Assembly: GCA_040758355.1 (NCBI GenBank)
Contig: JBFLWF010000019.1
Location: 1 to 51,256, forward strand
Source of the DNA: Nitrospirota bacterium
GTDB lineage: Bacteria > Nitrospirota > Thermodesulfovibrionia > Thermodesulfovibrionales > Dissulfurispiraceae
Direction: 5' to 3'
DNA length: 51,256 nt
In this document: positions 21,001 through 42,000 of the stretch, one piece after another
How positions within the stretch are numbered: the stretch's first letter is position 1
Layout of the letters: each line of letters begins with the position of its first letter
Position numbers: made by a program

Positions 21001-24000
21001 AATATCAGGGGTTAAAGAAGGAGAAGAACTCGCCACAAAGTTAATATTGCCTGTGACTGCAAAAGGAAAATAGTTATTTGTTAACTAATAACTATCGATT
21101 TTGTAAGGCAGGCACTGCTCAAAGACTTTAAAAAGTGTTGGTTCAAGTGTATATGAGAGATAATAAATGCATCACCAAGCAAGTATCCAATGTCGTAGAT
21201 GACGGATACAAGATAGATGTTTTTACAAGTGCGGAGTTTAAAGTCTTTCCGCAGCACCTGCCTTACAAATCTGAATTACAGAATCGCTTAACTTAGGAAC
21301 TTATAACTATGAGCATTTTATGCCTTATGGAAAATATAACAAAGACTTACAAGATAGGCGAAGAGCATGTAGAGGTTTTGACCGGTATAAATCTTCGTAT
21401 AGACCGAGGAGAGTTTGTGGCCATCATGGGCACATCGGGCTCCGGCAAGACAACCCTCATGAACCTCATCGGATGTCTTGATGTACCAACATCCGGGCGT
21501 TATGTACTTGCAGACAGTGAGGTCTCGAACCTAACAGACGATGAACTCTCGGTAATAAGAAATGAACACATAGGTTTTGTATTCCAGAATTTTTATCTGC
21601 TGCCATATGCCACGGTGTTCGAAAATGTTCTGCTTCCAACCCTTTACGTGGAAAAACATAAAGACGATGCAGAGAAGCATGCGATGGAGCTTTTAAGGCT
21701 TGTTGGACTGCAAGAAAGGGCGAAATTCAGGCCGAATCAGCTCTCAGGCGGACAGCAGCAGCGCGTTGCCATCGCAAGGGCATTGGTGAATGACCCCGAT
21801 CTCCTTTTATGCGACGAGCCTACAGGACAGCTTGACAGCAAAACCGCTGCAGAAATAATGAACCTGCTAACGGAAATGAATAAGCTCGGGAAGACAGTAA
21901 TAATAGTAACCCATGACCAGAACATAGCCGCCTATACGAAAAGGACCATACTGATAAAAGACGGGGCAATCGTTTCGTAAGAATATCAGGATTATCAAGC
22001 CTTAAGCGCTGGTGTTATATGCTCCACATCGTTGAGGATATCCTCTATCTGGAACGGCTTGTTTATGCACCTCACAACGCCCTGCTGCATCACATCGTTT
22101 AAAATATCCTCGGAGAGATAAGAAGAAATGACAATCACAGGGGTATCTATGCCCAGTTCCTTGATCTTTCTCACAAGCTCGTGTCCGTTTACATCAGGGA
22201 GCTTGAGATCCGTAATTACAACATCATACTGGTTTTCCATCATCTTTTGAATGGCTTCGTTTCCTGTATAGACACAGCAAACCGAATGGCCTGCATGCTT
22301 CTCGAAGGTCCTTTTCAGCGACCAGCATATGAGCTCTTCATCGTCTACAACCAATATTTTCATATCCTTCCTCATTTTATGTGGCATGTGAAACATAATG
22401 AGCTTCCTGAATTGGATTTCCTGAGAAAAGCCCCCCTCGTATTATCGTGAGGATCGTGGCAGGATGCGCATTCCACCTTACCGCTGAATAACTTAACATC
22501 GCTCCAACCATTCTGCAGGTCGGGCGGTATATTAAAGGCCGGATCCTGTGCTGCAGTGGGGTATGTCATGGAAATTGGGTGGTCATCCCCTAAGTTTGGC
22601 CCTATGCGAATATATGAATTATCCGGATACCCGTACATAGTTGGATGACACCTGGCACAGTTGGGATTGGATGTAGTATCAGGAACCGATCCCGATCCCG
22701 GGCCATTTCTGAGATCATGCGTATCCGTGCTGTTCACCGCACTCGATGCACCTGCATCGTCATGACAGGTTAAACACGATATGGAAATTGGGCTCGGGTG
22801 CGAAGGGACAGAGGTATTCATCGTTGGACTTGTGTACATTGTAAAGGCATTTATGTTCGTAATATTCCTGTTCCATAGCGGAGCAGCAGTACCGGCAGCG
22901 TTTGCAAAATGAGGTGTATGGCAGTATATGCATACCTGCTCACCGGCGGTGCTGATGTCGTGTTTAGAGCCTACTACAGTTGCGCCGTATGCAACCACCG
23001 CTATTGTGAGCAACAGTAAGAGTATTAAGACCAAGGCTATCATTTTTCCTTTAACCGCCATCCATCTCTCCTCCGCATAAAATCCTGATTATTAAAATTA
23101 GCAAAAATCATTCCCATTAACTACAGGTGAAGGAAAAGGTAGAGGTAAAGTAAAAACAAGCAAAATTAGGCAAAAATATTACTTTTCTTTACCTTTGCCT
23201 CTACCTTTACCTGTCTTTACTGCGGGATTTCACTCACACGGTGGGGGAAATTTAGCAGAAATTATTTTCTATGGCAGGTTGTGCACAACGCACTTCCTGT
23301 ATTTGATTTTCTCAGGAACATTCCCCTTGTTGCGTCATGCGGATCATGGCATGAGCCGCATTCGACCTTGCCGCTATACAGTTTCACATCTGTCCATCCG
23401 GCAGAAAAGTCCGGAGGGAGATTAAAGAACTCAGGCAGGCTGGTGGGATACGGCATGGAGATCGGGTGATCATCCCTTAAATCAGGTCCGATTGTAAAAT
23501 GGGGGTTGAGACCAGATGGCCCGCTTCCTCCTGCATGACATTTACTGCAATTAGGGGAAGAAGGCGTGCTCGAATTGGCATCTGATCTCAATTTATGGGT
23601 ATCCGTGTAATTAACAGCGCTCGATGCGCCTGCATCATCATGGCAGGTCAGGCACGCAAGGGAATATGAACCGGGCTGTATACCTGTAGAGGTTTTCATT
23701 GTCGGACTTGAGTACATTACAAAGGCACCGAGGTTTGAGATATTCCTGTTCCATGCCGGACTAATGCCTGGAGCCGGGTTGCGCCATGTATGGCAGAATA
23801 TACATGGGTCTGTTGTCGTTGGTGTGGTAAGGTCGTGCTTTGTGCCGGAAACGCCTGCGGCATAAGCCACTACATAGGATAGAAACAGGCTTGCCACAAA
23901 AAATAACAAAATAAATGTCTTAGAATTACAGTTCATGGATATATATATAAATAAAAAAGAATTTTATACAGAAAGCTGCTTTATCTTAGCAAAAGTCATT

Positions 24001-39000: not shown

Positions 39001-42000
39001 CCCCGTGTCTGCCACATAAACCCTGCCCTTTGAAGCAAAGACACTATAAGGCCGTGCAAGGAGTACGTCTGTTCCCTCGCCAACCACAGACCTCATCAGC
39101 CATTCCTTGCCTGTTTCTCCAACGACATCCTTCTCTCCTCTTATCCATCCTACCCACTTAATCCTCGGCTCATCAGGCGGCTGCGGCCAGAATAATTCGA
39201 CATGCTCTGTTTTAGGAGCACAGTAAAAACAGGTAAAGGAAAAGGTTAAGGTAAAGAAAAACAAAAGATGTTTTAAATTCGAAAATATCCCTATTCTGTC
39301 ATTCCCGCAGTCTTTAAGTGGGAATCCATACAAGGCTTTCTGGATTCCTGCTTTCGCAGGAATGACATCTTCATTCCCTTTTGTGTCGACCTGTCGGTAT
39401 ATAGGTTTCTCCTTTACCTGTTCTTTTTTTTGTGGTAAGATTTTTGCAAATAACATTTTTGCCTATATCTTATGAAACATACTATTTTTATTTTGGTTGT
39501 ATCAATTTTTATACCACTTATGGTATCTCATCAGACCCCTGCGCTCCAGACAAAAGAGTGCACAGCATGCCACATATCCCCTAACGGAGGCCCTGTAAAA
39601 AAACCTCTTACCGAACTGTGCGTCACCTGTCATCGGGAGAGGATAGAAGCAGGAGAACATGTCGTTGATATAATCCCTAAATATCCCGTACCCAAAAATC
39701 TTCCGCTGACAAAGGAAGGGAAGCTCACATGCATTACATGCCATGACCAGCACTCAAAAGACCCCATGATGTTAAGGTTAGATACAATAATCCTGTGCAA
39801 TCAGTGCCATAAGAAATAGGTAATAGGCAACAGGTCATAGGTGATAGGTTATGGAAAATAAAAAAATTAAAAATATCCTTAACCAATAACCTATAACCAA
39901 TGACCTATGACCTTTGCTTTTTTGACCCATAACCTATGACCCATCACCTGTATTTAGAGCAGTCCGAATTTCTGCATCTTATACCTGAGGGCATCCCTCG
40001 ATATGCCAAGCAGTCTTGCAGCCCTTGTCTGGTTGCCGTTAACCATCTGAAGGGCCTTTACGATCAAATCCTTTTCCACATTCTTGAGGGAAAGCCCCTC
40101 GGGAGGGATATTGAACGGCGCCTTTTCCTCTTCTGCAGAAGAAACCTCCGCAGTACCCACATAATCGACAATTTCCGAGGGTATATGCTCCGGGTATATT
40201 ACATCCGTATCTTCAAGGATGCATATCCTCTCTATCACATTCTTAAGCTCTCTCGTGTTGCCGTACCACGGATAATCCACAAGCAGTTTTTCGGCCTCCG
40301 GGGATATGCCTTTTACATTCTTTTTGAACTCCCTGTTGAAAAGCCTGATATAATGCATGGCGAGGGGTATTACGTCCTCTTTCCTCTCCCTCAGCGGCGG
40401 TATGAATATGGGAATGACCTTAAGCCTGTAATAAAGATCAGCCCTGAAACTGCCGTCTTTAACCGCGCTCTCCAGATTCTTATTTGTGGCAGCGATAATC
40501 CTCAAATTCACGGTTATATCCTTAAGCCCGCCTACCCTCTTGAATGTCTTATCCTCGATAACCCTTAATAATTTTGCTTGTGTGGCAGGCTTGATATCTC
40601 CTATTTCATCGAGATAGAGCGTGCCGCCGCTGGCAAGCTCGAAGAGCCCCTTTTTAGATGCCTTTGCATCCGTGAATGCACCCTTTTCAAAACCGAACAA
40701 CTCGCTCTCGATCAGCGTCTCAGGGATGGCTGTTGACGTAACCTCGACAAATGGCTCGGATGCCCTTGCGCTGTGGTAATGAATGGCCCGTGCTATGAGG
40801 TTCTTGCCTGTACCGCTCTCGCCCTGAATGAGTATGATGTTGGCATCGCTCTCTGCAACCTTCTTTGCGAGGGCTATGACCTCTTTCATGGGCCTCGACT
40901 GCCCTATTATGTTATTAAAACTATACTTATCATACTGCTCTTCCCTGAGATAGGTAACTTCCCTTTTCAGGGTTATCGTTTCCAGCGCCTTTTTGATAAG
41001 GACGGATATTCTATTCAGATCGAACGGTTTTTCAACAAAATCGTATGCGCCTAACTTTATGGCAGAGACTGCCGTCTCTATATCTCCATGGGCAGTTATG
41101 ATAACCACGATGACTTCCTTGTTGATCTTCCTTATTGCCTCGAGGGTCTCAAGACCGCTTATTCCGGGAAGATGAATATCGAGGAGGATAATGTCAGGCA
41201 GCTCTGTCCTGAATACCTCAAGCCCTTCTTCACCCGATTCGGCAGTGAAAACTTCATAGCCCTCTTTCTCAAGATGCTGTTTAAGGGACCATGTTATAAA
41301 CCTTTCATCATCAACAACAAGAATCTTGGCCTGAACCAATCAATCCTCCTTCTGTCTTTCATTGCCTGCCTTTTATCGGTAAGTATACCGTAAACAAGCT
41401 TCCCTTACCAACTTCGCTCTCCACAATAATCTCGCCGCCGTGCTCCTGAATGATCTTACGGCTTATGGACAATCCGAGACCTGTGCCTTTGGTCTTCTTT
41501 GTAAAAAACGGCTCGAATATGTACGTCAAGTCCTCGGGTGATATGCCTTTGCCTGTATCGTGGAACTTAACGGCTATAAACTTCTCATCCTGTAGCGGCT
41601 TTTTTATCTCTCCCTGCACTTCCTGTCTGTCTTTCTTCGATGCAGATATAGTCAATATGCCGCCATTAGGCATTGCGTGAATGGCGTTTATGGTTATATT
41701 CAGGAACACCTGCTGCACCTGGTCGGGATCCATGAGTATTTCGGGGATTTCGCTGCCGACTTGATTGTCGATAACTATGCTCTGCTTTTTTGCCTCCGGA
41801 TATACAAAGAAAAGGGTCTTCTCTAAAATCTCGCTTATCCGTGAAGGCACAAACATGGGTGGCTTGGGTTTCGCATAGCTCAAAAGGTCCTTTACTATTC
41901 TATCGAGCCTGTTTACCTGATTTAAAACCTCGGTAATAACCGGCTTTCTGCTGTCATCGTCGCTTAGTTCGGAATTAAACACCTGGACAGCACAGCTTAT

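Follow-up and report, generated by a model that had tools for sequence, protein, structure and literature searches.

A gene cluster in the Nitrospirota DNA analyzed here (the window, a stretch of 51,256 nucleotides) on balance probably makes an OmcE-type cytochrome nanowire, for which one of its products, the multiheme protein g01859, would serve as a dedicated polar end-piece. This protein is no peculiarity of the Nitrospirota, as it is a member of the UetJ family, which already had its name before anyone recognized the OmcE head.

Published work treats as open how cytochrome nanowires begin, how they terminate and how they are attached to the cell (PMC13712944; PMC12307469). One anchor candidate has been named and doubted because of its position outside the operon, and no tip candidate was found in omcE operons (PMC13712944). 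Since g01859 fuses this candidate to its partner inside the cluster, the outside-operon objection is removed. Its relatives, fused or as two genes, go with the wire gene in many bacteria, which makes g01859 a strong, testable candidate for the piece that starts or anchors the wire. The Gmet genes to which this analysis points already have deletion mutants in G. metallireducens. The analysis also connects the OmcE wire family with the electron-uptake (Uet) clusters found in cathode and iron oxidizers, and such wires would be easier to engineer or to couple to surfaces with a defined end-piece.

Organization of the gene cluster

The range first given for the cluster, 22372-39456, proved too short, as the cluster goes on to position 48072; all features lie on the minus strand unless stated otherwise. 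Beyond the earlier limit are a 13-heme DmsE-like cytochrome (46693-48072; phmmer score of 286 bits against the 9-heme gene of a Geobacter-type omcE locus, L110), a TPR protein and two redoxin-TPR proteins that are probable maturation helpers (43940-46696; Pfam, with NCBIfam for one), and an 8-heme cytochrome (42874-43875; phmmer, 192 bits to the 8-heme gene of the same locus). The comparison that the earlier note could not make is now available: the two multiheme genes of the Geobacter clusters are homologs of these two cytochromes and not of g01859, so they were rejected as a split form of the latter. A histidine kinase with one CxxCH motif and a sigma54-dependent response regulator follow (39954-42873; Pfam, ORF scan), then a small 4-heme cytochrome on the plus strand that relatives retain (39472-39819; ORF scan, neighborhoods) and an NHL beta-propeller protein with a lipobox-like Cys (38260-39456; Pfam, ORF scan).

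The tetraheme omcE gene (g01867, 37372-38133) is preceded, as had been reported, by a sigma54-type promoter motif (GG-N10-GC; 38181-38166, motif scan) of a kind that occurs 38 times in the 2.77-Mb genome; among 85 stand-alone OmcE-like genes, 32 have such a motif upstream. Conservation of M23 places the omcE start probably at 38067. A terminator-like hairpin 3' of omcE (37335-37351, unstranded) was identified by a consensus match alone, and scans for sigma70 promoters and terminators gave no excess over shuffles. Between omcE and g01859 are a gene for a four-helix-bundle (23S IVP-like) protein that is probably an insertion (36903-37265; Pfam, NCBIfam), a second NHL beta-propeller protein with a lipobox-like Cys (35574-36695; Pfam, ORF scan), a SurA/PrsA-like PPIase that resembles UetB (34573-35562; Pfam, NCBIfam), a 578-aa ORF at the UetC position (32800-34536) and a third NHL beta-propeller protein at the UetI position, immediately upstream of g01859 (31735-32790; Pfam). 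The 578-aa ORF lies where a large beta-barrel had been claimed; its conserved position and C-terminal Phe suggest a putative outer-membrane barrel, and it has no Pfam or NCBIfam match. A second sigma54-type motif (31674-31689; motif scan) lies upstream of g01859 and is retained in four other loci (L151, L152, L153 and L155) and before the split N-terminal half in L131.

Downstream of g01859 (29589-31619) are a toxin-antitoxin-like DUF4258 and YgiT-finger pair that is probably an insertion (29021-29565; Pfam, NCBIfam), a small 4-heme cytochrome that also follows the fusion in close relatives (28340-28939; ORF scan, neighborhoods), ResB and CcsB for cytochrome c maturation (26122-28268; Pfam), a B12-dependent radical SAM protein (24046-25515; Pfam, NCBIfam) and two 5-heme OmcE-like proteins. 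One of these (22372-23061) has a His three residues past heme 1, the putative donor discussed below; the other (23262-23936) does not, a loss that recurs in two same-genus genomes only, and from its sequence this donor-less protein is a candidate for the other filament end. Thus the three NHL proteins, the PPIase, ResB, CcsB and the two 5-heme genes previously listed for the cluster were all located; the window has no plasmid match.

The OmcE subunit and the OmcE-headed cytochrome

The product of g01867 is, as proposed, a tetraheme OmcE of the UetA type and the candidate major subunit, with four CxxCH motifs, four conserved distal His (eight His in all) and matches to the OmcE structures 7TFS (E 8.5e-28) and 9YUQ (E 1.3e-26). 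Among stand-alone OmcE-like proteins, 84 of 92 end at most three residues after heme 4.

By comparison, g01859 (676 aa, 10 CxxCH motifs) consists of a signal peptide, an OmcE domain at about residues 23-238 that contains hemes 1-4 and His55, and an extension predicted to carry hemes 5-12. Residues 9-238 match 7TFS (E 3.4e-24), with 9YUQ absent from the matches of the head at E<0.1; an AlphaFold model also matches the 7TFS fold (Foldseek E 2.7e-5; Z 8.4, residues 27-238), so residues 23-238 have both the sequence and the fold of OmcE, with all eight His kept. The OmcE head described in the earlier note is thereby confirmed, but the six additional hemes counted there become eight: six CxxCH motifs, a CX13CH motif (C297-x13-C311-H312, invariant in 99/99 close homologs) and a probable C-terminal variant motif (C665 in 97 and H668 in 98 of the 99), which would bring the total to about 12 rather than 10. 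An anchor subunit has been defined as an OmcE-like structure that has one His beyond its needs and hence leaves no heme open (PMC13712944); g01859 has 14 conserved distal-type His for these approximately 12 hemes, of which heme 4 is probably closed, and at least His342 and His364 are surplus and invariant.

The spacing of about 62 residues per heme in g01859 is close to that of OmcE (58) and differs from that of the 13-heme (28) and 8-heme (26) proteins of the cluster. Its C-terminal module occupied the C-terminus in 22/22 other carriers among those listed. The score of g01859 against the MtrA/DmsE decaheme family TIGR03508 fell below the cut-off (25.1 vs 192.2 bits). When its C-terminal half was compared with OmcS, there was no match by phmmer or by Foldseek at E<=0.001, and the structural alignment reached only Z 4.8, so that an OmcS homolog or an adaptor between OmcE and OmcS is unsupported. 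The one 6-heme protein of G000 that was examined is of a different kind, though no search aimed at OmcS itself was made. A lipid anchor on the fusion was rejected, as a lipobox is found in 0/109 fused proteins, and an anchor role would therefore require a partner.

Conservation among fused and split relatives

The OmcE-headed gene neighborhood is conserved in many phyla, and the family profile (E<=1e-15) has matches in 34 of 61 genomes, the source genome included. Among 109 fused proteins drawn from many phyla, 106 keep the His that follows heme 1, 107 keep the one that follows heme 5, and all 109 have a His between hemes 4 and 5. An HHP motif had been offered as an extra His; it is indeed present in the window and three same-genus copies, and in 79 of 99 close homologs, but in only 11/109 fused proteins overall, and since 92/109 have DHP, the HHP histidine was rejected as a ninth His. 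An NHL gene adjoins the fused gene in 93/99 loci with enough upstream DNA. Where 8 kb of upstream DNA was available, 49/62 fused loci contain a stand-alone OmcE-like gene, and the other 13 contain none inside the DNA fetched.

Fused and split forms both occur within the order, as had been stated. In nine of 18 split pairs, the C-terminal half has lost the His that follows its first heme and the N-terminal half has an additional His close to heme 4; seven pairs retain the former and lack the latter, and two are exceptions; this rule was framed after 14 of the pairs had been viewed, and the pairs are kin from about three lineages. The heads of fused and split proteins group apart from filament-type OmcE (FastTree support 0.994; 2 changes vs 30.6 in shuffled data), and this group forms one branch in only 63% of IQ-TREE bootstrap trees.

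A split copy tracks omcE in Desulfuromonadia

None of nine canonical Geobacterales omcE loci examined has an OmcE-headed long cytochrome in cis. In Desulfuromonadia a split copy lies at a distant locus unlinked to omcE, where it heads a type II secretion operon, has an NHL gene directly upstream of the N-terminal half and lacks a barrel gene (an adjacent 805-aa ORF was rejected as a barrel because it is Lon). The halves are colinear with g01859, the N-terminal half with 27-32% identity and the C-terminal half by profile comparison (probability 99.9, E 9.6e-34).

Across 212 Desulfuromonadia genomes, 77 have both the omcE-locus barrel and the split C-terminal half, one has only the barrel, eight only the split copy and 126 neither; that is, the split copy is present in 77/78 genomes with a canonical omcE locus and 8/134 without. 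Within Geobacterales the split pair and omcE match in 46/47 both ways, and of 35 genomes that lack the canonical omcE barrel but have other members of the family, only one has the split C-terminal half. Co-occurrence by way of the secretion operon was rejected: the adjacent secretin is found in 109/121 genomes and fails to track omcE, so the split pair follows omcE rather than its own neighbors. The one barrel-only genome has no secretin hit either. Of the 34 hits of a control nanowire-type locus, 32 fall in omcE-positive genomes (32 of 47 omcE genomes carry it), so part of the co-occurrence may reflect lineage or shared physiology.

By position, the split N-terminal half corresponds to Dsoud_2415 and Gmet_1868. 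Dsoud_2415 is the published 9-His anchor candidate that was doubted for lying outside the operon (PMC13712944), and Gmet_1868 is required, like OmcE (Gmet_2896), both to reduce Fe(III) oxide and to grow in coculture with G. sulfurreducens (PMC10989804; PMC9070056). An anchor was expected to be encoded with omcE and to co-evolve with it (PMC13712944); g01859 is in the same cluster, and the split copy accompanies 77 of 78 omcE loci. The earlier suggestion that g01859 is an end-piece thus gains from the neighborhood, the clade of OmcE heads, the split-copy co-occurrence and a deletion phenotype assigned by position, but not with HHP as the relevant extra ligand.

Proposed function and alternative explanations

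In chaperone-usher tip and anchor pilins and in the curli nucleator CsgB, a subunit-like domain with a closed interface is combined with an added domain; g01859 would resemble these by analogy, not homology, with a heme-His bond as the link. Each OmcE subunit gives one His to an open heme of its neighbor, the likely donor being the His three residues past heme 1 and the likely open heme being heme 4. In g01859 the donor, His55, appears to be free and heme 4 to be filled internally by His280 of the extension, so the only filament end that the protein could bind would be the one with the open heme 4, and its own other side would allow no extension. It would lengthen the heme chain by eight, closing with a module that elsewhere always terminates proteins, and would initiate the wire either as a root that reaches into the barrel or as a tip that leaves first, with the root or anchor role slightly preferred. 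Heme 2 of OmcE has been described as receiving the neighbor's His (PMC12203936), and if that numbering follows the sequence, the heme-4 polarity proposed here is wrong. The separate sigma54-type promoter, together with the high expression reported for UetJ, also fits poorly with a role at one copy per filament. In a broader reading, which is possible but which we hold only tentatively, omcE and uet clusters would be one nanowire system of many phyla, with UetJ/g01859 as the obligatory initiator, His-linked at the heme-4 end, and donor-less paralogs closing the other. If so, UetJ/g01859 would move electrons between filament and envelope in reducers and oxidizers alike, and this would be the first cytochrome nanowire with a defined heteropolymeric architecture.

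It is unlikely, though the closest reading to the published Uet model, that g01859 is an MtrA- or MtrC-like rod in or on the barrel of a porin-cytochrome conduit that has no covalent-like link to a filament, its OmcE head being just a structural module. An alignment of the g01859 model to MtrA spans hemes 2-11 (215 residues, Z 7.8, rmsd 4.6), but this score is within the range of a common heme arrangement; the putative barrel lies two genes upstream, and Eddie et al. proposed UetJ or UetA as the filling of the Uet barrel, whereas an OmcE-like spacing of about 62 residues per heme leaves the 13- and 8-heme proteins better suited to a barrel. Deletion phenotypes would suit any essential step. 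The donor-type His55 lacks an internal target in the ledger of heme ligands yet is kept in 106/109 proteins, and the Desulfuromonadia split locus tracks the omcE locus while lacking a barrel.

Still less likely, g01859 could be a 12-heme filament subunit in which His55 of one copy completes the last heme of another, giving a second wire or an OmcE co-polymer. A strict repeat ledger does leave heme 12 open and His55 free, the six C-terminal hemes weakly overlay OmcS (Z 4.8-5.2), the gene has its own promoter motif, and polymerization of UetJ or UetA was suggested by Eddie et al. However, the last heme could be closed by at least two surplus invariant His (342 and 364), the protein differs from filament-type OmcE in having a conserved tail beyond its last motif, it is usually accompanied by a separate OmcE, and the Desulfuromonadia N-terminal halves appear self-closed; that known filaments are homopolymers of small subunits (PMC11936953) is weak evidence in the same direction. 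The least probable reading is a surface reductase or export-linked cytochrome that acts independently, being kept with omcE through shared physiology or ancestry and having no contact with OmcE. The control locus likewise nests in omcE-positive genomes, the split pair stands first in a type II secretion operon and the genomes are kin, yet such a protein would hardly match omcE both ways across Geobacterales, be so rare where the omcE barrel is missing, or share one cluster with omcE in many phyla.

Relation to known systems

The UetJ undecaheme of the uetA-J cluster was named in 2022 (Eddie et al., 10.1101/2022.05.06.490989; also PMC10734462), and that report saw no further domain in UetJ and, in the passages covered here, drew no homology link from UetA or UetJ to OmcE. 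With its 10 canonical CxxCH motifs plus variant motifs and its signal peptide, g01859 is colinear with its 11-heme counterpart in a Ca. Tenderia locus, L079 (E 6e-54; 28% identical across residues 24-625), which is not the type sequence, and the tetraheme protein of that locus matches 7TFS (E 3.8e-25). The window shares with uet the order tetraheme, PPIase, putative barrel, NHL, long multiheme and Ccs, but it lacks the three c7 trihemes and the cupredoxin (none lies between 34536 and 31619), and is therefore a uet variant rather than a canonical uet cluster; g01859 is also shorter than UetJ (676 vs about 900 aa).

With the omcE nanowire cluster (7TFS, 9YUQ; PMC13712944) the window shares the tetraheme motifs, four distal His, NHL, a putative barrel, two multihemes, ResB/CcsB and a sigma54-type motif. 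Canonical Desulfuromonadia omcE loci have neither an OmcE-headed long cytochrome nor a PPIase in the stretches fetched, whereas the window joins both to the omcE cluster and adds two 5-heme paralogs. Dsoud_2415 and Gmet_1868/Gmet_1867 (by position) are homologous to both halves of g01859 and have NHL upstream, but they are separate genes that open a type II secretion operon at a distance from omcE, and the N-terminal half has an extra His of its own while the C-terminal half has lost the linking His. Another variant is the second omcE-like cluster of a further genome (L111 in G020), a shorter subtype with no filament known, which encodes a tetraheme, NHL, a pentaheme, a long ORF with no heme, NHL and a 579-aa fused protein. 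Its order fits GSU3221-GSU3228, with the tags assigned from gene order, and the genes with those tags show 2-8-fold higher expression on hematite or magnetite (PMC4070692).

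Relation to known systems

All of the ORFs named in the earlier note were found, each on the minus strand of contig C19 of this 2.77-Mb genome, and the cluster reaches past the range given there, through 8-heme and 13-heme genes to 48072. The tetraheme protein encoded at 37372-38133 is OmcE-like, matching both solved OmcE chains, and the OmcE domain proposed for the N-terminus of the 676-aa protein g01859 (29589-31619) was recovered (residues 9-238 against 7TFS, E 3.4e-24). A toxin-antitoxin-like pair (29021-29565) and a four-helix-bundle gene (36903-37265) are probably insertions within the cluster, and another stand-alone OmcE-like tetraheme of the same genome (contig C22, 24043-24651) has no cluster around it.

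The g01859 cluster is a variant of known systems, the OmcE cluster and UetJ. A Ca. Tenderia locus with the uetA-J gene order (L079) encodes an 11-heme protein that is 28% identical to g01859 (E 6e-54) and a tetraheme that matches 7TFS (E 3.8e-25). Eddie et al. (10.1101/2022.05.06.490989) report no other domain in UetJ and suggest interaction or polymerisation of UetA and UetJ. Uet is not named in PMC13712944 from its abstract to the start of its Methods, and among the papers listed, from a collection with few subscription journals, none names both UetJ and OmcE; one contains UetA and OmcE a single time each (for related literature, see PMC10734462, PMC12307469, PMC13194489, PMC12806980, PMC12133095, PMC5815863, PMC11492766, PMC11936953).

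Structure and heme sites of g01859

The AlphaFold2 model of g01859, from which hemes are absent, has a pLDDT of 78.9 and a pTM of 0.82; its sole significant Foldseek match is 7TFS, to which residues 27-238 align with a Z of 8.4. Modelled alone, the C-terminal half adopts a confident fold (pLDDT 88.9) that gave no Foldseek match and middling structural alignments to MtrA (Z 6.8) and OmcS (Z 4.8). The ten CxxCH motifs counted previously are invariant among 99 close homologs, taken from 120 matches listed, but that count omits C297-x13-C311-H312, also invariant, and a probable twelfth, variant site (C665 in 97/99, H668 in 98/99); the terminal variant motif is present in 75 of 109 fused proteins and in 14/14 split C-halves. 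Thirteen distal-type histidines are invariant in the close homologs, and His592 is kept in 89/99. The HHP histidine, His157, had been put forward as an extra His; it occurs in 79/99 close homologs versus 11/109 fused proteins overall, and is therefore not the general extra ligand.

In 22/22 other carriers among the matches listed, very long multihemes included, the C-terminal module forms the protein end. At loci L135-L138 and L158-L160, it ends multihemes of up to 1916 aa as well as stand-alone 6-9-heme proteins adjoining 19-27-heme genes, so one side reading is that it is a general chain-terminal module. A B12 radical SAM gene (24046-25515 in the window) and a ResB/CcsB pair recur beside cytochromes with this module (L005, L135, L138, L151, L153, L155), possibly as maturation factors specific to variant heme motifs or to make a modification.

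Distribution and origin

A scan of species genomes for the g01859 family, in which the best 79 loci of 576 confirmed stretches were considered, placed it in taxa that include Campylobacterota, Aquificota, Bacteroidota/Chlorobi, Elusimicrobia, Desulfobacterota and Proteobacteria. Among the loci fetched, we counted 109 different fused proteins, 92 stand-alone tetrahemes, 12 pentahemes and 14 split pairs. At 93 of the 99 loci with enough DNA, the gene immediately upstream of the fused one encodes an NHL protein, and 49/62 fused loci with 8 kb of upstream DNA contain a stand-alone OmcE-like gene.

In a FastTree phylogeny of 225 rows, the fused and split heads formed one group that includes two stand-alone rows (support 0.994). 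In an IQ-TREE analysis of 90 of them (18 selected and 72 drawn at random), two changes were counted versus 30.6 after shuffling, and one branch held the heads in 63% of bootstrap trees. This clustering of the OmcE heads makes a single origin likely. The window OmcE and g01859 each group with Campylobacterota copies in the IQ-TREE analysis, hinting that the cluster may have moved jointly between phyla.

Fused and split copies in Desulfuromonadia genomes

Of three Desulfuromonadia genomes compared (G020, G032, G141), G020 encodes the 7TFS chain as its OmcE, and the OmcE of G141 is the 9YUQ chain. The earlier note had left uncompared two multiheme genes of the Geobacter clusters; at the canonical omcE locus, one of these is a homolog of the window gene at 46693-48072 and the other of that at 42874-43875, and the fusion is absent from the canonical loci of nine Geobacterales and three Desulfuromonadales (20 kb fetched each). 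G020 does have a fused copy, in a second, complete omcE-like cluster (L111) whose gene order fits GSU3221-3228, reported as up-regulated on conductive iron oxides (PMC4070692); this cluster is possibly a fourth nanowire type.

In all three genomes there is in addition a split copy, with an NHL gene, a 4-heme gene and a 7-heme gene lying between lon and a type II secretion operon; its halves are colinear with g01859. The pair (L133, L113, L131) heads that operon (GspF, GspE, PilM/N, TPR-secretin), with lon upstream; no type II secretion genes lie near the cluster in the window. The operon may bear on export of OmcE or its end-piece. The G141 N-half is the sole tetraheme within 2,609-2,669 kb and, of three OmcE-like matches, the only one located where Dsoud_2415 is expected by position; it has the eight standard histidines plus two others, one close to the C-terminus and one unconserved. 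Likewise, the G032 pair is the sole 4-heme/7-heme pair in 2,051-2,111 kb, the place expected by position, and with the species inferred, for Gmet_1868/1867. Growth in coculture with G. sulfurreducens and the reduction of Fe(III) oxide are both reported to require the four-heme cytochrome Gmet_1868, and cocultures likewise depend on the OmcE Gmet_2896 (PMC10989804); Gmet_1867 and Gmet_1868 are listed under Fe(III) oxide in PMC9070056.

Each genome was searched with two profiles, one of the canonical omcE-locus barrel (12 rows, E<=1e-40) and one of the split C-half (8 rows, E<=1e-60). As raw genome counts that ignore kinship, both were found in 46 of 121 Geobacterales, the barrel only in 1, the split C-half only in 1 and neither in 73; for 91 Desulfuromonadales the numbers were 31, 0, 7 and 53. 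The two loci are unlinked, and among Geobacterales with other family matches but no barrel the split C-half occurs in 1/35. The secretin adjoining the pair is present in 109/121 Geobacterales and missing too from the sole barrel-only genome, pointing to a gap in that assembly. However, omcE-positive genomes also account for most matches to the large NHL gene of the OmcP-type locus (32/34 matches; 32/47 genomes). The OmcP-type tetraheme itself is flanked by a 900-aa NHL protein on one side and a 23-58-heme gene on the other (L132, L134, L139, L140).

A possible filament end-piece

OmcE subunits are joined by one histidine that reaches a heme of the neighboring subunit, and two hemes stack at the contact (PMC9473688). 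The sequence has a repeated unit of a lead His, CxxCHxxH and CxxCH. By analogy with ligation in OmcS and MtrA, we assume that the His following a unit's first motif ligates the final heme of the unit before it; by this rule, His55 of g01859 would act as donor and heme 4 as acceptor. Of the stand-alone proteins, 84/92 stop at heme 4, and His280 is kept in 107/109 fused proteins. Among 18 related split pairs found by pattern, which missed one known pair, nine lack the His280-type residue and have an additional His close to heme 4, seven retain that residue and have no additional one, and two are exceptions, a rule drawn after 14 pairs had been seen. Both patterns are consistent at the sequence level with the His55/heme-4 model. 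PMC12203936 gives heme 2 as the OmcE acceptor, which conflicts with this model unless file numbering was used.

If the His55/heme-4 model is right, g01859 would be confined to the open heme-4 end. Overall, we lean slightly towards a role as a filament end-piece. A position at the root would agree with the anchor definition of PMC13712944 and with the putative barrel two genes away, and one at the tip with how thick and insulated the protein is and with the absence of a lipobox (0/109 fused proteins). The 5-heme OmcE-like paralog at 23262-23936 (minus strand) lacks the donor His, a loss seen in only three genomes of one genus (this one and those of L171 and L151), and the stand-alone tetrahemes of L001 and L012 are also without a His after heme 1; such donor-less proteins could be terminators that close the other end. 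The link to the split pair, its co-occurrence with the omcE locus and the phenotype of the mutant allow the open end-piece question to be tested directly.

Regulation and neighboring genes

By consensus match only, sigma54-type motifs precede both omcE and g01859 in the window and lie upstream of 32/85 stand-alone OmcE-like genes, 6/108 fused genes and the G141 split N-half; the whole genome has 38 such motifs, and a terminator-like hairpin lies 3' of omcE. The sensor region of the histidine kinase at 41359-42873 contains a CxxCH, which suggests a redox-sensing role. To the left of the cluster, the minus strand encodes a series of large secreted or repeat-like proteins (262-15978).
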